From Thermofilum pendens Hrk 5 (GTDB taxonomy: Archaea; Thermoproteota; Thermoprotei; Thermofilales; Thermofilaceae), in NCBI RefSeq assembly GCF_000015225.1, contig NC_008698.1, positions 480,001 through 512,000 on the forward strand: 32,000 nucleotides of DNA. The letters run 5' to 3'. The notes beneath the pieces are model-generated. The model did no database searches and was not told the origin of the DNA. It saw only the letters and a program-made list of their open reading frames with translations. Below are positions 3,017 to 19,336 of this stretch, one piece after another; position 1 is the first letter of the stretch; each line of letters opens with the position of its first letter. The translations under genes and the position numbers were made by a program.

Positions 3017-3046
3017 GGAGGGGGCCGGGCGCCTTTTCCTGCTGGT
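3017..3046 (-). repeat. Cassette 3' trailer element, copy A (ACCAGCAGGAAAAGGCGCCCGGCCCCCTCC on the minus strand)
   Basis: Lies 10 nt after the stop of the 3057-4565 ORF. It matches 20757-20787, 28060-28089 and the first 20 nt of 16397-16416. Confidence 0.8.
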
Positions 3047-3056
3047 CTTACCTCTT

Positions 3057-4565
3057 TTATTCTTGTGCCCCAGCTGGTTTAATTCTTAGCAGTTCTTCAA
3101 CCAGTTTGCGCGCAACGGGCTTAGCCTGCGCCTTTGCAACTGCGAAGCGGTAGAGTGCCTCCCAGAGTGTTGCATCCTCCGCCGCGTGCTCAAACAGAGA
3201 ACTTTGAGGAATTTCGTAGTAGAGCATCTCGCGCGTCGTGTGCGCGCGTGACTTGACGCGTGACCTGACAACCTTCACAGTCCACCCCTCCTCTACTGCG
3301 CGCTGGTACCAGCCTTGAGGCGCACTGTCAACGGGTATACGGGCGTATATGTAGGCGTACTTGCCGCCAACGGCAACCATAACGAGGTTAAGCAACGCTC
3401 CTGCCACCGGCGCGTAGAGGCCGAGCTCCTGGTAAGACCCCACTTTCTGTCCGGGTTTCCTACCCCTCTTACCCGGCGCTCCGTAGGCCACGAACAAGAT
3501 ATGCCTAACCTTCGCGCAACGCGTAACCTTGCCCACAAATGCTACGTATTCGCTGGCCCGTTCGACAGCAACGCGCGCGTTAAAGACAGCGCTCTCCGTC
3601 GGCAAGTAGACGTGCTCATGTCCAACCCTGAAGTAGAGCCATCGAAGCCTTAGAAAGTATTCGAGCTCGCCGTCCCCCAGGAAAGCGGTCGCCAGCGCCA
3701 CCGAGTCGCCGTTGAGCTCCTTGCACTCCTCTACGAGCCGGCGGAACTCTGCACGTTTAACCTCGCCGATAAGCCCTGAAGCCCAGCCTAGCTCCTCCTC
3801 GTAGCCGTAGATACTCACTCCCCACTGAAGGCTCAGCCTGGTGCTACCGAGAATACCCGCCGTGACACCGAGCCTGACATCGTCGCTTGGAAAGGCCGCG
3901 AGCGTCGATGGCAACTGCCAAGCCTGGGTAGTGCCGAAGGAGACGTAAGGATATCCTTCATGCGGCGGAGTGACGTCTGTGAGTAGCCACCCTCGTTGCA
4001 GGCTCCTAAGAACATCACTCGGAGTATTCACGAGAACCCTGGGAAACTCTGACTCGGTCCAGAAGCCTTTCAACGGGATGCGCACGACCCAGCGCGCAGG
4101 CTTGCTCACGACGACGTACCAGTTCTCGCGCGGCACGTACACGCGCCAGTGCCTTCCGTGCCTCTCAGCTCTAAGACCGTCCTCGGTAGCGTCGACGATT
4201 GCTTGTAGCCTTCCTCTGAGCTCCGTCACCGCGCTTCCCTCTCTCGGCCTGTTGTCATCGCTTAGCAAGAGGTACTTCCTCGCGTCGCTGTCGATGAAGC
4301 GGTAAAACCTCGGGTAGACTTCGTCCGGCACTACGCTCAGCGCGTGCGCCGCAAACCTGGTAAAGTCCCAGTTAATTTCGGTCACAGCATCATGCAGGCC
4401 GCGGTAGTGTATCTCGCCCCTCTTCTTCTTACCCCTGGACCTCCTCTTATCCTCCGTCCTGGTGGTGTAGAGGCTTAAAGCCGCACGCCTCCAAACCTCC
4501 TCCCTAACAACCTTCTCGACCTCCTCCCCCGCCGCTCCATTTCCCCTCATGTACTCTTCACCCAT
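3057..4565 (-). CDS. Large cassette protein, copy A (502 aa), a divergent paralogue of 19337-20755 and 26636-28054; function unknown
   Basis: Long ORF with motifs collinear to copies B/C: MRGNGAAGE vs MRGDGAGEG, RHWRVYV vs RRWRLYV, LQRGWLLTDVT vs AQDGWILGDAS, GTTQAWQL vs GTAQTWQV, LSLQWGVSIYG vs VSIMWQVRVHG, ATAFLGDGE vs ATYYAADGK. It has the same leader and trailer DNA. Confidence 0.8.
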   Translation of the reverse strand: MGEEYMRGNGAAGEEVEKVVREEVWRRAALSLYTTRTEDKRRSRGKKKRGEIHYRGLHDAVTEINWDFTRFAAHALSVVPDEVYPRFYRFIDSDARKYLLLSDDNRPREGSAVTELRGRLQAIVDATEDGLRAERHGRHWRVYVPRENWYVVVSKPARWVVRIPLKGFWTESEFPRVLVNTPSDVLRSLQRGWLLTDVTPPHEGYPYVSFGTTQAWQLPSTLAAFPSDDVRLGVTAGILGSTRLSLQWGVSIYGYEEELGWASGLIGEVKRAEFRRLVEECKELNGDSVALATAFLGDGELEYFLRLRWLYFRVGHEHVYLPTESAVFNARVAVERASEYVAFVGKVTRCAKVRHILFVAYGAPGKRGRKPGQKVGSYQELGLYAPVAGALLNLVMVAVGGKYAYIYARIPVDSAPQGWYQRAVEEGWTVKVVRSRVKSRAHTTREMLYYEIPQSSLFEHAAEDATLWEALYRFAVAKAQAKPVARKLVEELLRIKPAGAQE

Positions 4566-4652
4566 ACTACCACCCCTCCTTAAATGGTGGAGGGGGCGCC
4601 CTGCGAGGGCGCGGCATCAGGGGTCAGCGTGGAGGGAGAGGCCGGGAAAGAG
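4566..4652 (-). promoter_or_regulatory. Conserved cassette leader, copy A (palindrome GCGCCC-TCGCA-GGGCGC, then CCACCATTTAAGGAGGGGTGGTAG directly before the ATG)
   Basis: About 84% identical by eye over about 88 nt to 19248-19336. The proximal about 50 nt is also shared with 26585-26635. Confidence 0.75.
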
Positions 4653-4664
4653 TGTTGACCGAGC

Positions 4665-4895
4665 ATGAGTGACCCGAGGGTTACCGTGCGAACGATAGGC
4701 ACGTTGTCGAGGCTACTGGCGAGCACTCTTAGGCGTGACGGGCTGTACGAGGCTAGGCTCGTCGAAGCATTAGACGCAGTAGAGGAGTTCCTAGCCTCCG
4801 TGAGAGGCGCGACCCCGCGCATCGAGGAGGACGAAAAGCTGGCAAGAGAGCTGGAGGAGGACATCGAGGGGCTGAGAGGGCTAGGGCTAGTATAA
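4665..4895 (+). CDS. Small cassette protein, copy A (76 aa, helical, acidic C-terminal half), divergent from the large ORF
   Basis: ORF track. It has a close homologue without a start codon at 18824-19040 (minus strand) and a distant one at 26394-26618. A T-rich tract follows the stop. Confidence 0.6.
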   Translation: MSDPRVTVRTIGTLSRLLASTLRRDGLYEARLVEALDAVEEFLASVRGATPRIEEDEKLARELEEDIEGLRGLGLV

Positions 4896-4970
4896 AAATC
4901 CTTCTTCTTTTTCCTCTTCTCGCGAGCGCAAGGTTTTTACGGAGAGCCATAGCTATTCGCGCGGACATGT

Positions 4971-6296: not shown

Positions 6297-7889
6297 CTAG
6301 AAAGAAGGTCTGATCTCCAGTGTGTAACCGTAGCGCCTAGCGATGCGTTCAAGCTTCCTTCGAGGTTTACCCGCAAGGTAGTTAAAACCGTCTACCGGGA
6401 CCTTGATCACAACGAGCGATTCGTTCTCGTCTATCACGAGCTCGTAGCCTCCGTCTCCGAGCATCTTGAAGAGAGCCTTCTCCAACGCGTTCTTCATCTT
6501 GTACCCCTCTATGCTCACCTTGCCTGTACCGCCCCGCTTAACGGGAACCACGAACGTCCTCTCGCCGAACACGTACAGCTCGTACTCAGGCTCTCCGGTC
6601 ATGAAATCCCTGACAACGACAACGGGTCTCGCCAGGTCCTCCTCCTTCAGCCCATGCGGTATCTTGACTGTAGTCTCCAAGGAGTATACCTTCTCAACCC
6701 TCCCGTGCTTCACGTAGATCACGGTGTCAATTATCGAAGGTATCATGCCGAGCTCCACTCTACCGATAAACCTCTGAACGGCGTCTATAGGCGAAGTCGC
6801 GTGGACAACTCCGACCATACCCACGCCGGCGAGGCGGAGGTCAGCGTAGAGCTCGAAGTCCTTCGTATCCCGCATCTCGTCGAAGAATGTGTAGTCAGGC
6901 CTGCTGAGTAGGAGCACGTCGTGTATCTCCTCGGAGGTAGCGTAGTTCCTAGAGTACTGCGTTATATCGGCGGGCAGGTGCATGTCCCTCGGAGACTCTA
7001 TGGTCTTAACGACTTTCCCCTTGCGGTAGTAGTACTCGGCGAGCGCCTGGGCGAACGTGGTCTTACCCATCCCCGGGGCACCCGCGATGAGTATACCCTC
7101 GGCCTGCTTCTCGAGGCGCTCTATGAGCTTCTTGGGCAAGTTGTAGTCCTCCAGGCGTAGCCGCGCAACAGGTCTAGTAGCAGTTATCTCGATGCCGTCC
7201 GAGAAGGGAGGCTTCGTTATGACTATCCTGTATAACCCTAGCTGCACTATGGTAACCCCCGTGCCCTCGTACTCTACGAACGCCGAGCTCCCAGAAGTCT
7301 TGACCATCTCGAATACTTGGCGCACGTAGTCCTCCATCTCCTCGCGCGTCAAAGGCTGGTCCCGTAGGCTAACGAAGGTCCACTGCCCAGGCACGCCCTT
7401 CTTCGCGTACGGCTTAGCTCCCTCCTTCAAGTGCACGCTCATAGTGTCGGGACCGAAAAGCTTGTCCAGGAAGAACTCGGCGCCTCCGCGCGGCGGGAGA
7501 AGCTCCACCTCCACGCCGAGCGCCCTCGCAACCCTAGCCGAAAGCTCGTCGCACGTTACCAGCACGCCGCCGTTCTCCACGGCAGTCAGCCTACAAACCA
7601 GGTCCGGGTTTAGGTCCCGCAAACCCCTCAGAGACACTGGGAGCTCATACACGTATTCAAGCTCCACTACTTCGGGCATCGAGTCCGCAACGTCTCTCAG
7701 CAGGTTAAGCTCCCTAACACCACTTACTCCAGCGCTTATCCCGCGGCGCGCCTGTTCCTCGAAGTAATTGAGCACATAGACAGGAATCAAGATACGCCCA
7801 GCTAACCTACCCTGCGCAACAGCCTCTCTGAGCGCGCCGCTCAGTATAGCAGACGTGTCAGGCACGTATACTTTTTCGTCGTGCTCCAT
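6297..7889 (-). CDS. PIN domain + PilT-like ATPase + C-terminal KH-like domain protein (COG1855-type archaeal ATPase)
   Basis: 530 aa with an N-terminal PIN-like region (VPDTSAIL...), Walker A GAPGMGKTTFAQALAEYY and Walker B-like YTFFDEMRD. Length and domain order fit the conserved archaeal PIN-ATPase-KH family. Confidence 0.85.
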   Translation of the reverse strand: MEHDEKVYVPDTSAILSGALREAVAQGRLAGRILIPVYVLNYFEEQARRGISAGVSGVRELNLLRDVADSMPEVVELEYVYELPVSLRGLRDLNPDLVCRLTAVENGGVLVTCDELSARVARALGVEVELLPPRGGAEFFLDKLFGPDTMSVHLKEGAKPYAKKGVPGQWTFVSLRDQPLTREEMEDYVRQVFEMVKTSGSSAFVEYEGTGVTIVQLGLYRIVITKPPFSDGIEITATRPVARLRLEDYNLPKKLIERLEKQAEGILIAGAPGMGKTTFAQALAEYYYRKGKVVKTIESPRDMHLPADITQYSRNYATSEEIHDVLLLSRPDYTFFDEMRDTKDFELYADLRLAGVGMVGVVHATSPIDAVQRFIGRVELGMIPSIIDTVIYVKHGRVEKVYSLETTVKIPHGLKEEDLARPVVVVRDFMTGEPEYELYVFGERTFVVPVKRGGTGKVSIEGYKMKNALEKALFKMLGDGGYELVIDENESLVVIKVPVDGFNYLAGKPRRKLERIARRYGYTLEIRPSF

Positions 7890-7960
7890 TACTTACTCGC
7901 GTGAAAGCGTCGTGCTAACCTTTTAAGCATTTCGATATAGTAAGAGTATTCTCGGAAACT

Positions 7961-7985
7961 CCAAGACCCCTCAATTTCTACTGCA
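7961..7985 (-). promoter_or_regulatory. ORB-like (origin recognition box) element 1
   Basis: The minus strand reads TGCAGTAGAAATTGAGGGGTCTTGG: a dyad-like TxCA-NN-GAAA followed by the G-string GGGGT. Confidence 0.65.
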
Positions 7986-8055
7986 ACACTTCTTCAAAAC
8001 CTAACTGTTTGATAGAACTCTTACTGTTTACGATCTCAAGTTTTCAATCCACTTC

Positions 8056-8081
8056 TTCCATAGGAAGTCAAGGGGTCTTGG
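8056..8081 (+). promoter_or_regulatory. ORB-like element 2 (inverted relative to element 1)
   Basis: The plus strand reads TTCCATAGGAAGTCAAGGGGTCTTGG. Its outer arm AGGGGTCTTGG is the exact reverse complement of 7961-7971. Confidence 0.65.
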
Positions 8082-8153
8082 AACGTTATACAGGAGCTCC
8101 CCGTTTATTCAGCTGTTTAATCGAATAACACCAGGAGAACCCGGGGTTTAAAT

Positions 8154-8175
8154 AACCCCTCGATTTCCACTGGAG
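8154..8175 (-). promoter_or_regulatory. ORB-like element 3 (best match to the ORB consensus)
   Basis: The minus strand reads CTCCAGTGGAAATCGAGGGGTT. It contains the TCCAGTGGAAA core and the G-string known from Sulfolobus, Aeropyrum and Pyrococcus ORB/mini-ORB elements. Confidence 0.7.
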
Positions 8176-8368
8176 TTCTGGAAAGAGAAAAGATCTTGGA
8201 TATAAGCTGTTTATTCCTGTGAATAAATCTCTTTTTATGAATAAAGTTGCAAAAATTCGAGAACAGAGTATTAAGGCAAAAAATAAGCGTTATTCCGTTT
8301 CTACGCGCGGCGTCTAACGTAAAAGATGGCTATATTAAGCCCCAAGGGCGCTTATACAAGGGTGTTTA

Positions 8369-8761
8369 ATGGCGCCTAGGATCAAGATAGAGGATACATC
8401 GGACACGGGCGAGAAGATAACGCTGACCATAGAGGGACCTGAGATAGACGAGACGAAGCTACTACAGCTCATTCAGGCTCTAAAGGCTATTAAGGGCGAG
8501 GAGCAACCTAGAGTTATCGAAGCCTCCGAGTCTATGAAGGCTAGGATTTGGAGAATAATAGTGGAGAACTTCGGCGACGGGACCTGGTTCAGCCTCCGGG
8601 ACCTTCACAACGTCGCCTTAAAGGAAATGCCCGACCTGAAGATAACCGCTGTGTCGACGTATGTTTCAAGGCTTGTTGCGGAAGGCAAGTTGATAAAACG
8701 CGGCACAAAGCCTAATACGCGTTACAGGGTCTACACGTCGCGCGTAACAGCGCGCGTTTAG
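8369..8761 (+). CDS. Small winged-helix DNA-binding protein (130 aa), hypothetical
   Basis: The C-terminal half (WFSLRDLHNVALKEMPDLKITAVSTYVSRLVAEGKLIKRGTKPNTRYRV) reads as helix-turn-helix plus a beta-wing. A TATA-like TATATTAAG lies about 30 nt upstream, so the transcript is probably leaderless. Confidence 0.6.
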   Translation: MAPRIKIEDTSDTGEKITLTIEGPEIDETKLLQLIQALKAIKGEEQPRVIEASESMKARIWRIIVENFGDGTWFSLRDLHNVALKEMPDLKITAVSTYVSRLVAEGKLIKRGTKPNTRYRVYTSRVTARV

Positions 8762-8763
8762 GC

Positions 8764-9336
8764 CTACTTTACGGAGACTACGAGAAGCTTCGCAATATCG
8801 CTCTTCGTAATTATCCCCTTGATCTTCATCTCGTCCTCCACCAGTACGGCGGGGACGCCTCTCCCGAGCATTCTGGCAACAACGCGTATCTTGGTCCCGC
8901 AGGATATTATGGGCAGGGGGTCCGACATTACGTCGGCAGCCGTGAGCTGGGCTGCGCGGGTATTTTCGCGTATGAATGCCCGTAGAACGTCGTCGTCGAA
9001 CACTGTGCCCAAGTTTTCGTTCGACGAGTCGTCTATGACGGGTAGCTGGCTGAAACCTTTCTCCCACATGATCCTAGCCACTTCGAGTAGGCTAGTGGAA
9101 GGCTTTACGTAGACGAGTGGCGACGACATAACCTCGCAAGCCGTGAGCTCCTCCTCCATGAAGCTCTCAAGCGCACGGTATATCTTCATGAGAGTGGAGA
9201 CTCGAGGGTTAACCTTGCCCGCCTCTATCCTCGCTATAAGGCTCTGGCTCACCCCCGCCCTTTGGGCCAGTTCAACCTGCGTTAACCCTGCGCGTAACCG
9301 TAGTAGCCGGAGTTCTTCGGGGGAGGGTATCGGCAT
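8764..9336 (-). CDS. XRE-type HTH + tandem CBS domain transcriptional regulator (COG3620-like)
   Basis: EELRLLRLRAGLTQVELAQRAGVSQSLIARIEAGKVNPRVSTL is a Cro/C1 HTH, followed by two CBS-like repeats. I prefer the ATG at 9336 (MPIPSPEEL) over the ORF-track start at 9372, because family members start just before the HTH and a TATA-like GTTAAAAATG sits about 30 nt upstream of 9336. Confidence 0.85.
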   Translation of the reverse strand: MPIPSPEELRLLRLRAGLTQVELAQRAGVSQSLIARIEAGKVNPRVSTLMKIYRALESFMEEELTACEVMSSPLVYVKPSTSLLEVARIMWEKGFSQLPVIDDSSNENLGTVFDDDVLRAFIRENTRAAQLTAADVMSDPLPIISCGTKIRVVARMLGRGVPAVLVEDEMKIKGIITKSDIAKLLVVSVK

Positions 9337-9377
9337 ACCAAAAAAGTAATAGGTTCGATGCATTTTTAACATTTGCG

Positions 9378-18767: not shown

Positions 18768-18823
18768 AAGCGCCCACGTTTACAAACCAGGGAAAAAGGA
18801 AGAAAGGAATAAAAAGGGGGTTT

Positions 18824-19040
18824 TTATGCCAGCCCTAGCCCTCTCAGCTCTTCGACGTCCTCCTCCAGCTCCCTTGCTAACTCCTCGTCTTCCTCGACTC
18901 TCGCCGGAGCGCTTCTCACGGAGGCTAGGAACTCCTCTATCGCGTCCAACGCCTCTACCAGCCTAGCCTCGTAGAGCCCGTCACCCTTAAGAGTGCTCGC
19001 CAAGAGCCTCGAGAGAGCGCCGATAGTCCTAACGATAACG
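18824..19040 (-). pseudogene. Small cassette protein, copy B: 5'-truncated, with no start codon
   Basis: The minus-strand translation ...RVIVRTIGALSRLLASTLKGDGLYEARLVEALDAIEEFLASVRSAPARVEEDEELARELEEDVEELRGLGLA* is about 80% identical to 4665-4895. The frame has no in-frame ATG/GTG/TTG upstream of the homologous region, and homology ends at the GCGCGCGCG tract near 19041-19049. Confidence 0.6.
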
Positions 19041-19247
19041 CGCGCGCGGGTTCTTTGACAACGACGGCGTTGAGGAGGTGTTTTTGTGGCTTTTGGACAA
19101 GTTGCCCAGCGTGAAACACTACACCTTCGAGTACAGCTTACCTCCGAACCTGCGCGCCTCTTTTGAGAAAATAGTGCACGAGATACTGCTCGCCTAAGTT
19201 AGAGTCCTAAACCCCCAGCCTGAAAAGTATCTTTTTTTGCCGCCCCC

Positions 19248-19336
19248 CTCTTTCCCCGGTCCCTCCCTCTACGCTGACCCCTGATCGCGCGCCCGAATAG
19301 GGCGCCCACCCCACCATTTAAGGAGGGGTGGTAGGT
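19248..19336 (+). promoter_or_regulatory. Conserved cassette leader, copy B
   Basis: CTCTTTCCCCGGTCCCTCCCTCTACGCTGACCCCTGATCGCGCGCCCGAATAGGGCGCCCACCCCACCATTTAAGGAGGGGTGGTAGGT followed by ATG. The palindrome GCGCCC-GAATA-GGGCGC is at 19289-19305. Confidence 0.75.

Follow-up and report, generated by a model that had tools for sequence, protein, structure and literature searches.

A candidate oriC1-type replication origin in Thermofilum pendens, flanked by a conserved family of winged-helix genes

In oriC1 of Sulfolobus islandicus, which we rebuilt from the oligonucleotide tables in the supplement of Dhanaraju et al. 2025 (PMC12141716), ACCCCTTCGGTTCCATTGGAG is followed by a duplex unwinding element (DUE) of ~93 bp with the ucm inside it, and then by TCTCCAAATGAAATACTGGGGT; it follows from this reconstructed order that the two essential origin recognition boxes (ORBs) turn their dyads toward the DUE and their G-strings outward. 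The ucm, ATTATACAAA(AG/CT), is the essential binding site of UBP (PMC12141716 supplement). ORB motifs derived from DoriC have been compiled for Ori-Finder 2, the 'Common' motif being TCCA[CG]T[TG]GAAA[TC][GA]AAGGGGT (PMC4164010, Table 1) and that of the Sulfolobaceae TCCA[AG][AT][TG]GAA[CA][CT][GA]AAGGGGT (PMC4164010). In Aeropyrum pernix, the orc1/cdc6 genes are not beside either origin (PMC5333045) and both origins are active, as judged from marker-frequency analysis (PMC10769869), so that adjacency to orc1 is dispensable for an ORB-type origin. Here we analyse a stretch of 32,000 nucleotides of the Thermofilum pendens Hrk 5 genome (contig NC_008698.1, positions 480,001 to 512,000; hereafter the window, to which all coordinates refer) and report that the 479-bp gap between a PINA-like PIN/ATPase/KH gene and the gene for a 130-aa winged-helix protein, p130, probably holds a chromosomal replication origin of the oriC1 type. 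We know of no experimentally mapped replication origin in Thermofilum, for which the locus provides a precise oriC1 candidate.

The gap contains three repeats, which we call E1 to E3, and two AT-rich regions:

7961..7985 (core 7966-7985, TGCAGTAGAAATTGAGGGGT), minus strand: E1, ORB with 2 mismatches to the box pattern given below; majority-base frequency 0.76 among nine aligned cassettes
7986..8055, no strand: E1-E2 spacer, candidate DUE, 70 bp, 34% GC, with the dyads of E1 and E2 facing inward
8056..8081 (core 8057-8076, TCCATAGGAAGTCAAGGGGT), plus strand: E2, ORB, conservation 0.87
8154..8175 (core 8155-8174, TCCAGTGGAAATCGAGGGGT), minus strand: E3, ORB nearest p130 and the best conserved, 0.92
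8176..8300, no strand: second AT-rich block, on the dyad side of E3; 29% GC at 8176-8240, with two TGAATAAA copies

A scan of the 32 kb with the box pattern TCCANNGGAANNNNAGGGGT, allowing up to 2 mismatches, returned 3 matches against 0.24 expected from 100 shuffles, a count that 0/100 shuffles reached. All three lie inside the 479-bp gap, with 0, 0 and 2 mismatches. Written as the plus strand, E1 is ACCCCTCAATTTCTACTGCA and E2 is TTCCATAGGAAGTCAAGGGGT; their outer arms (CCAAGACCCCT and AGGGGTCTTGG) are complementary at 11/11 positions, and a repeat search lengthens the arms to 19 nt at 84% complementarity. Measured against the 'Common' ORB motif, E3 agrees at 18/20 positions and its orthologues in L001 and L002, two Thermofilaceae metagenome-assembled genomes (MAGs), at 20/20; S. 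islandicus ORB3, CTCCAATGGAACCGAAGGGGT, is matched by E3 at 16/21. Judged by these matches, the three repeats appear to be genuine archaeal ORBs, and a fourth, degenerate box is possible.

The arrangement of the boxes can likewise be superimposed on that of Sulfolobus. The polarity of E1-spacer-E2, dyads in and G-strings out, is that of ORB3-DUE-ORB2 in S. islandicus, and the T. pendens locus shares with Sulfolobus oriC1 its three ORBs, the TCCA..GGAA dyad, the GGGGT G-string, the inverted pair around an AT-rich spacer and ATTATACA-type motifs close by. The two loci differ in that the spacer of the inward-facing pair measures 70 bp in T. pendens versus ~93 bp in Sulfolobus, in that the ucm-like motifs of T. 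pendens lie on the G-string side of E2 whereas the ucm of Sulfolobus lies within the DUE between ORB3 and ORB2, and in that orc1-1 directly adjoins Sulfolobus oriC1, whereas no such gene adjoins the T. pendens locus.

The candidate origin had been proposed, from the letters of the DNA, in an initial annotation of the window, and most of what that annotation described was borne out: the three elements read exactly as quoted there, and the ORB layout, the perfect outer arms, the AT-rich spacer faced by the dyads and the second AT-rich block past E3 are all real. As to the Aeropyrum ORB sequence that it cited for comparison, the Thermoprotei locus L218 carries CTCCACAGGAAACAAAGGGGT. Its description of the gap as the longest and most AT-rich non-coding stretch of the window is right in part. 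The gap is the lowest-GC 400-bp bin (GC 0.40 versus 0.557 overall), but it is exceeded in length by 18768-19327, where 560 bp are devoid of any open reading frame (ORF) of at least 80 aa; GC is ~0.55 in that longer stretch, which has no tRNA or Rfam match. As to the second AT-rich block of the gap (8176-8300), it could be an alternative or extra unwinding region, or else an untranslated leader or regulatory region.

The annotation had also suggested that conservation of the intergenic region be checked in related genomes. For that purpose, we aligned nine cassettes (alignment A2), namely those of the window, L001, L002, L211, L212, L214, L151, L084 and L182. The triplet is found upstream of the PINA-like gene in the MAGs L001 and L002; in Infirmifilum lucidum (L211), MAGs L214 and L212 and the metagenome locus L151, it precedes a p130 homologue. 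With p130 placed on the plus strand, the order of the triplet is minus, plus, minus, the distance between box starts being 97-108 bp in the relatives, as against 91 and 98 bp in the window. The boxes are the conserved part: majority-base frequency is 0.92 in E3, 0.87 in E2 and 0.76 in E1, versus 0.48-0.65 in flanks and spacers (0.48-0.53 in the spacers on either side of E1), and the E1-E2 spacer has kept its length among cassettes while its sequence drifted. Since the boxes are kept in loci whose GC content spans 37% to 56%, selection bears on box sequence as well as on polarity and spacing.

The cassette follows p130 rather than the PINA-like gene. Indeed, L212 retains the boxes and p130 with no PINA-like gene adjacent, and 16 further Thermofilaceae/Thermoprotei loci in which the PINA-like gene stands in another context show no boxes and are not AT-rich upstream of the gene, which ties the cassette to p130 and not to PINA. 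These observations bear on the possibility that the boxes are operators through which a transcription factor, p130 itself or the helix-turn-helix (HTH)-CBS protein encoded next to it, controls the divergent genes. The boxes do lie between two divergently transcribed genes, one of which encodes a winged-helix protein, and a TATA-like element overlaps E3; however, the cassette persists with PINA replaced (L212) and with both neighbours different (L084, L182), and the TATA-like sequences that are the likely promoters of the flanking genes (near 7921-7928 and 8331-8340, identified by eye) fall outside 7961-8175. Moreover, the boxes fit a pan-archaeal ORB consensus and adjoin orc1 and polD in other lineages, as detailed below. 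Control of the divergent genes is, in our view, a very improbable explanation of the boxes. Note that a sigma-70/terminator scan gave nothing useful, this type of scan not being applicable to archaeal promoters.

We also considered whether a plasmid or virus that integrated here could have brought the cassette as its own origin, or whether the cassette could be a dispersed repeat of mobile nature. Four metagenome contigs of GC 0.45 speak in favour of this: L084 (5540-5745), L085, L182 (6196-6399) and L184 (1909-2112) carry a minus, plus, minus triplet with GGGGTTATTTAAACCCC and ATTATACA and have no p130, PINA-like or HTH-CBS gene, and the ORFs around the triplet in L084, the only one of the four for which ORFs were listed, encode unrelated hypothetical proteins. 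A second genomic, possibly extrachromosomal, context thus exists for the cassette. In the window, by contrast, it sits among core genes (Alba, crenactin, PINA-like, aminotransferase, pyruvate:ferredoxin oxidoreductase) whose order is syntenic across Thermofilaceae, with no integrase or tRNA genes nearby. Nor does the motif behave as a dispersed repeat, a finding that the initial annotation had named as fatal to its proposal: all copies of the window are in one gap, and in 80 other loci that were fetched, the exact matches are confined to the orthologous positions of L001 and L002; apart from these, just four isolated matches, with 1-2 mismatches, turned up. Viral contigs scanned for the box gave 8 matches, all single and unclustered, which argue for no viral source and are otherwise uninformative. 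A mobile nature of the T. pendens cassette is scarcely credible on this evidence.

The favoured reading, a chromosomal origin of the Orc1/Cdc6 type, draws further support from the company that the box keeps in other archaea. A metagenome scan with the 21-mer TCCAGTGGAAATNNAGGGGTT yielded at least 120 loci, selected by the box alone. In most of the 120 listed, boxes are clustered by 2-5; at least 46 have an Orc1/Cdc6 ORF (one confirmed by Pfam through Cdc6_lid and Cdc6_C), and ORFs for the small (DP1) and large (DP2) subunits of PolD are present in at least 18 and at least 13 of them, respectively. The ORB origins of Nitrososphaeraceae (Thaumarchaeota) offer a comparison: they contain the same 21-mer, and a p130-family gene diverges from them with the same polarity, 80-221 bp from the outermost box. 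They differ from the T. pendens locus in having orc1/cdc6 directly across the boxes and polD genes close by, and in that their boxes include direct repeats 61 bp apart, as against a minus, plus, minus triplet with a period of ~100 bp. Consensus match, geometry, conservation of the cassette and linkage to orc1 and polD elsewhere thus all support the proposed origin in silico.

What the T. pendens locus lacks is the initiator gene. As the initial annotation had noted, no orc1/cdc6 is to be seen nearby: none of the 30 larger ORFs of the window has a Cdc6 or AAA_22/Cdc6_C match in Pfam, and a hidden Markov model (HMM) built from the origin-adjacent Orc1 of ORB-selected loci found no match in the window. 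The flank where other lineages have orc1 is occupied by the PINA-like gene. From this comparison of gene orders, the locus would be a canonical orc1-linked origin from which the orc1 side alone has disappeared, p130 staying in place. The ancestral order would have been p130 <- ORBs -> orc1, which Nitrososphaeraceae and other lineages still show; Thermofilaceae would have exchanged the orc1 side, mostly for the PINA-like gene, and retained the p130 side. Such a loss would explain the missing adjacent initiator and would make the locus a tangible example of an origin that has become uncoupled from its initiator gene. Precedents exist. A. pernix oriC1 is likewise a crenarchaeal ORB-type origin without adjacent orc1/cdc6, the difference being that it has been mapped experimentally and co-crystallised with ORC1 whereas the T. 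pendens locus is a prediction. Thermoproteus tenax, placed in the same taxonomic order as T. pendens, has an ORB locus too; an origin unlinked from orc1 was suspected in that organism, and the authors of that work left the location of the origin open (PMC3189178).

If the locus works as an origin, the initiator would have to act in trans. Three Orc1/Cdc6 homologues have been reported in T. pendens (PMC3984812), and one of these paralogues, encoded more than 8 kb to the left or more than 24 kb to the right, could serve. By analogy with oriC1 of Sulfolobus and Aeropyrum (PMC12141716, PMC5333045), one monomer of an Orc1-1-type initiator would bind each box in a fixed polarity, with its winged helix on the dyad and its AAA+ domain on the G-string. 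The ATP-bound initiator would then bring MCM to the AT-rich spacer between the inward-facing boxes, and replication would run from the spacer in both directions.

Several observations weigh against an origin at this position, or against part of the scheme just outlined. E1 is the weakest of the three boxes, with its 2 mismatches to TCCANNGGAANNNNAGGGGT. The ucm-like motifs are located in the E2-E3 interval and not in the E1-E2 spacer, where the Sulfolobus ucm would have its counterpart, so that melting might occur in either interval. The cumulative GC skew is lowest at 7.6-10.8 kb, but this turn also tracks gene orientation, and a window of 32 kb cannot reveal a genome-wide extremum. Indeed, the minus strand carries 88% of the coding bases found left of the gap, and the plus strand 58% of those found right of it (as tallied from the ORF list); the skew minimum and the divergence of genes from the gap are compatible with an origin and constitute weak evidence for it. 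Finally, the putative T. pendens origin of Gao is a different locus (PMC4009838): it is adjacent to a tRNA gene and shares tRNA-like sequence, and there is no tRNA in the window. The tRNA-adjacent prediction rests on that shared tRNA sequence, which is poor evidence for an origin. DoriC has an entry for T. pendens (AORI10010034), to which a preprint on T. adornatum refers (bioRxiv 10.1101/2021.04.30.439615) and which may correspond to the present locus; the origin itself is thus new, or possibly already in a database, and the ORB/Orc1 type to which it would belong is already known.

The existence of another putative origin raises the question of whether the locus could be a dormant or relic origin, or an Orc1 site kept for gene regulation or chromosome organisation, with replication normally starting elsewhere. 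Dormant origins do exist in haloarchaea, as documented in PMC4595724, and the orc1 gene is no longer linked to the T. pendens locus, as might be the case for a relic. However, purifying selection is clearly at work on the boxes, on their polarity and on their spacing in genomes that have diverged, the AT-rich spacer between the inward boxes has been kept, and the tRNA-adjacent prediction is itself weakly based. We consequently regard a dormant or purely regulatory site as unlikely.

The less expected result concerns the gene on the right of the gap rather than the type of origin, ORB/Orc1 origins being textbook material:

8369..8761, plus strand: p130 (ABL77943.1), 130 aa, winged-helix protein of an unannotated family, divergent from the outermost ORB

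The initial annotation had listed this winged-helix gene as one of two neighbours. The gene is present as described, but it is not an incidental neighbour, since it belongs to a conserved origin-flanking family. At least 28 of the 120 metagenome loci listed have a p130 homologue, 27 of these 28 having a box 90-207 bp upstream of the start codon, and orc1 is found beyond the boxes in 21/28 (among the matches listed). Because the metagenome sample had been selected by the box, we also examined six p130 homologues found by protein homology alone (those of I. lucidum, three Thermoprotei/Thermofilaceae-type MAG loci, a Nitrososphaeraceae MAG and a Bathyarchaeota contig); boxes were present upstream of all six. 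When all loci are pooled, these six included, 37/37 of the p130-family genes with an upstream box have that box on the strand opposite to their own, at a distance of 80-221 bp from the start codon. At 50% identity the family is reduced to 129 representatives, at 90% to 375 clusters, and it extends over Thermofilaceae, other Thermoprotei, Bathy-, Verstraete- and Culexarchaeia, and Nitrososphaeraceae. As judged from these gene neighbourhoods, p130 appears to be a conserved origin-flanking gene, kept beside the boxes even where orc1 has left.

p130 has no match in Pfam, NCBIfam or PDB sequences, all members of the family that we encountered are named 'hypothetical protein', and we found no description of the family. 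The AlphaFold model (pLDDT 77) consists of an N-terminal beta-hairpin and helix followed by a confident single C-terminal winged helix, for which Foldseek returned generic winged-helix matches (Fur, MecI, ArsR, MarR), all with E values above 0.008. With such generic hits and no database match, any specific assignment of p130 as UBP, WhiP or a Cdc6 winged helix was rejected. A WhiP-dependent origin of the Sulfolobus oriC3 type was set apart too, without a WhiP sequence comparison: the boxes are canonical ORBs, and p130 has a single winged helix whereas those of WhiP are in tandem.

We tentatively suggest, as a possibility that remains on the doubtful side, that p130 and its homologues represent a DNA-binding factor associated with origins in TACK archaea that has so far gone unrecognised, the position of the gene being suggestive of a functional coupling. 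One possibility is that p130 binds the ucm-like/palindromic E2-E3 interval and modulates origin firing; another is that p130 expression is coupled to the origin and timed in the cell cycle under Orc1 control. UBP, found in Sulfolobus in 2025 (PMC12141716), offers a parallel for p130 as a candidate accessory factor. The haloarchaeal oapABC genes call for caution. Like p130, they are conserved beside the major origin, as far as PMC10927574 relates the work of Wolters et al. 2019, and they belong to unrelated families (small GTPase, DUF2073 and DUF2072; PMC10927574); yet OapA proved to drive vesicle formation (ArvA) (PMC10927574), so that adjacency to an origin is, alone, no proof of a replication role for p130. 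The family nevertheless provides a lead on a possible origin accessory factor, tied as it is to ORB clusters across several archaeal phyla.

Two further features of p130 were observed. In Nitrososphaeraceae (alignment A4, e.g. L086 3323-3850 and L159 1063-1662), p130 carries a conserved C-terminal extension that ends in TVYDLHL or TVYDLRL; this tail, which resembles a short protein-interaction tail, is not found in Thermofilaceae p130. In the window, a gene for an HTH_3 and CBS regulator (8764-9372, minus strand) is convergent with p130 (8369-8761, plus strand) and abuts its 3' end, and the pair is kept in Thermofilaceae and other Thermoprotei (L001, L002, L151, L211, L212, L214 and L218).

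The interval between E2 and E3 contains additional elements:

8085..8092, plus strand: ucm-like motif GTTATACA, 8 bp past the G-string of E2; the likeness to the Sulfolobus ucm is a resemblance only
8114..8121, minus strand: inverted ucm-like motif TGTTTAAT; relatives have TGTATAAT-type copies at +36 to +44
8131..8148, plus strand: half-box CCAGGAGAACCCGGGGT, a degenerate fourth one, with its G-string directly next to the E3 G-string; weak, conservation 0.63
8143..8159, no strand: palindrome GGGGTTTAAATAACCCC with a perfect archaeal TATA-like core and a G-string on either side, overlapping E3; found in 7/9 cassettes

In the nine-sequence alignment, the sequence of the E2-E3 interval is conserved across cassettes and that of the E1-E2 spacer is not. 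A ATTATACA-like motif stands at offset +8 from the E2 G-string in 6/9 cassettes (at most 1 mismatch). At the same tolerance, ATTATACA has 11 matches in the window and is enriched in the 479-bp gap, which contains 4 of them; the motif also resembles an archaeal TATA box. No UBP homologue was found among the neighbours, p128 and p135 having no PDB match. The TTTAAATA core of the palindrome reaches a majority frequency of 0.90. Lying ~210 bp from the p130 start codon, the palindrome is no obvious promoter of either flanking gene; a small RNA expressed from it was discarded as pure speculation, and neither the gap nor the whole window matches any Rfam family.

The left flank of the gap is formed by the PINA-like gene:

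6297..7889, minus strand: PINA-like PIN/ATPase/KH gene (ABL77942.1), NF010335 at 680 bits; outside the origin proper

ABL77942.1 is annotated as a PINc/VapC-family ATPase and matches NCBIfam PRK13764; against the equivalog for PINA, a Holliday-junction branch-migration ATPase, it scores 562, below the cut-off of 800. Farther to the left are Alba, two small unknown genes and crenactin, with an SMC-like gene past the edge of the window, and to the right of the gap p130 is followed by the HTH-CBS regulator, the aminotransferase and pyruvate:ferredoxin oxidoreductase.

The crenactin gene forms a conserved cluster with genes for 249-aa, 73-aa and SMC-like 791-aa proteins (834-2921, and 6123-8688 of contig L081). 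Situated 5-9 kb away from the candidate origin, this cluster has Alba and the PINA-like gene as neighbours; chromosome and cell-shape genes are thus concentrated in its vicinity. A segment of 1.9 kb (3017-4926) is missing from L081, a 99.4%-identical contig from another sequencing run, and a 100%-identical contig, L082, stops at 3086, just inside the segment. Its two ORFs (3057-4565, 502 aa, and 4580-4864, 94 aa) have no Pfam or NCBIfam match, and a search of the segment for terminal inverted repeats found none; a strain-specific insertion or a repeated mobile element could account for the segment, which sits between crenactin and p135.

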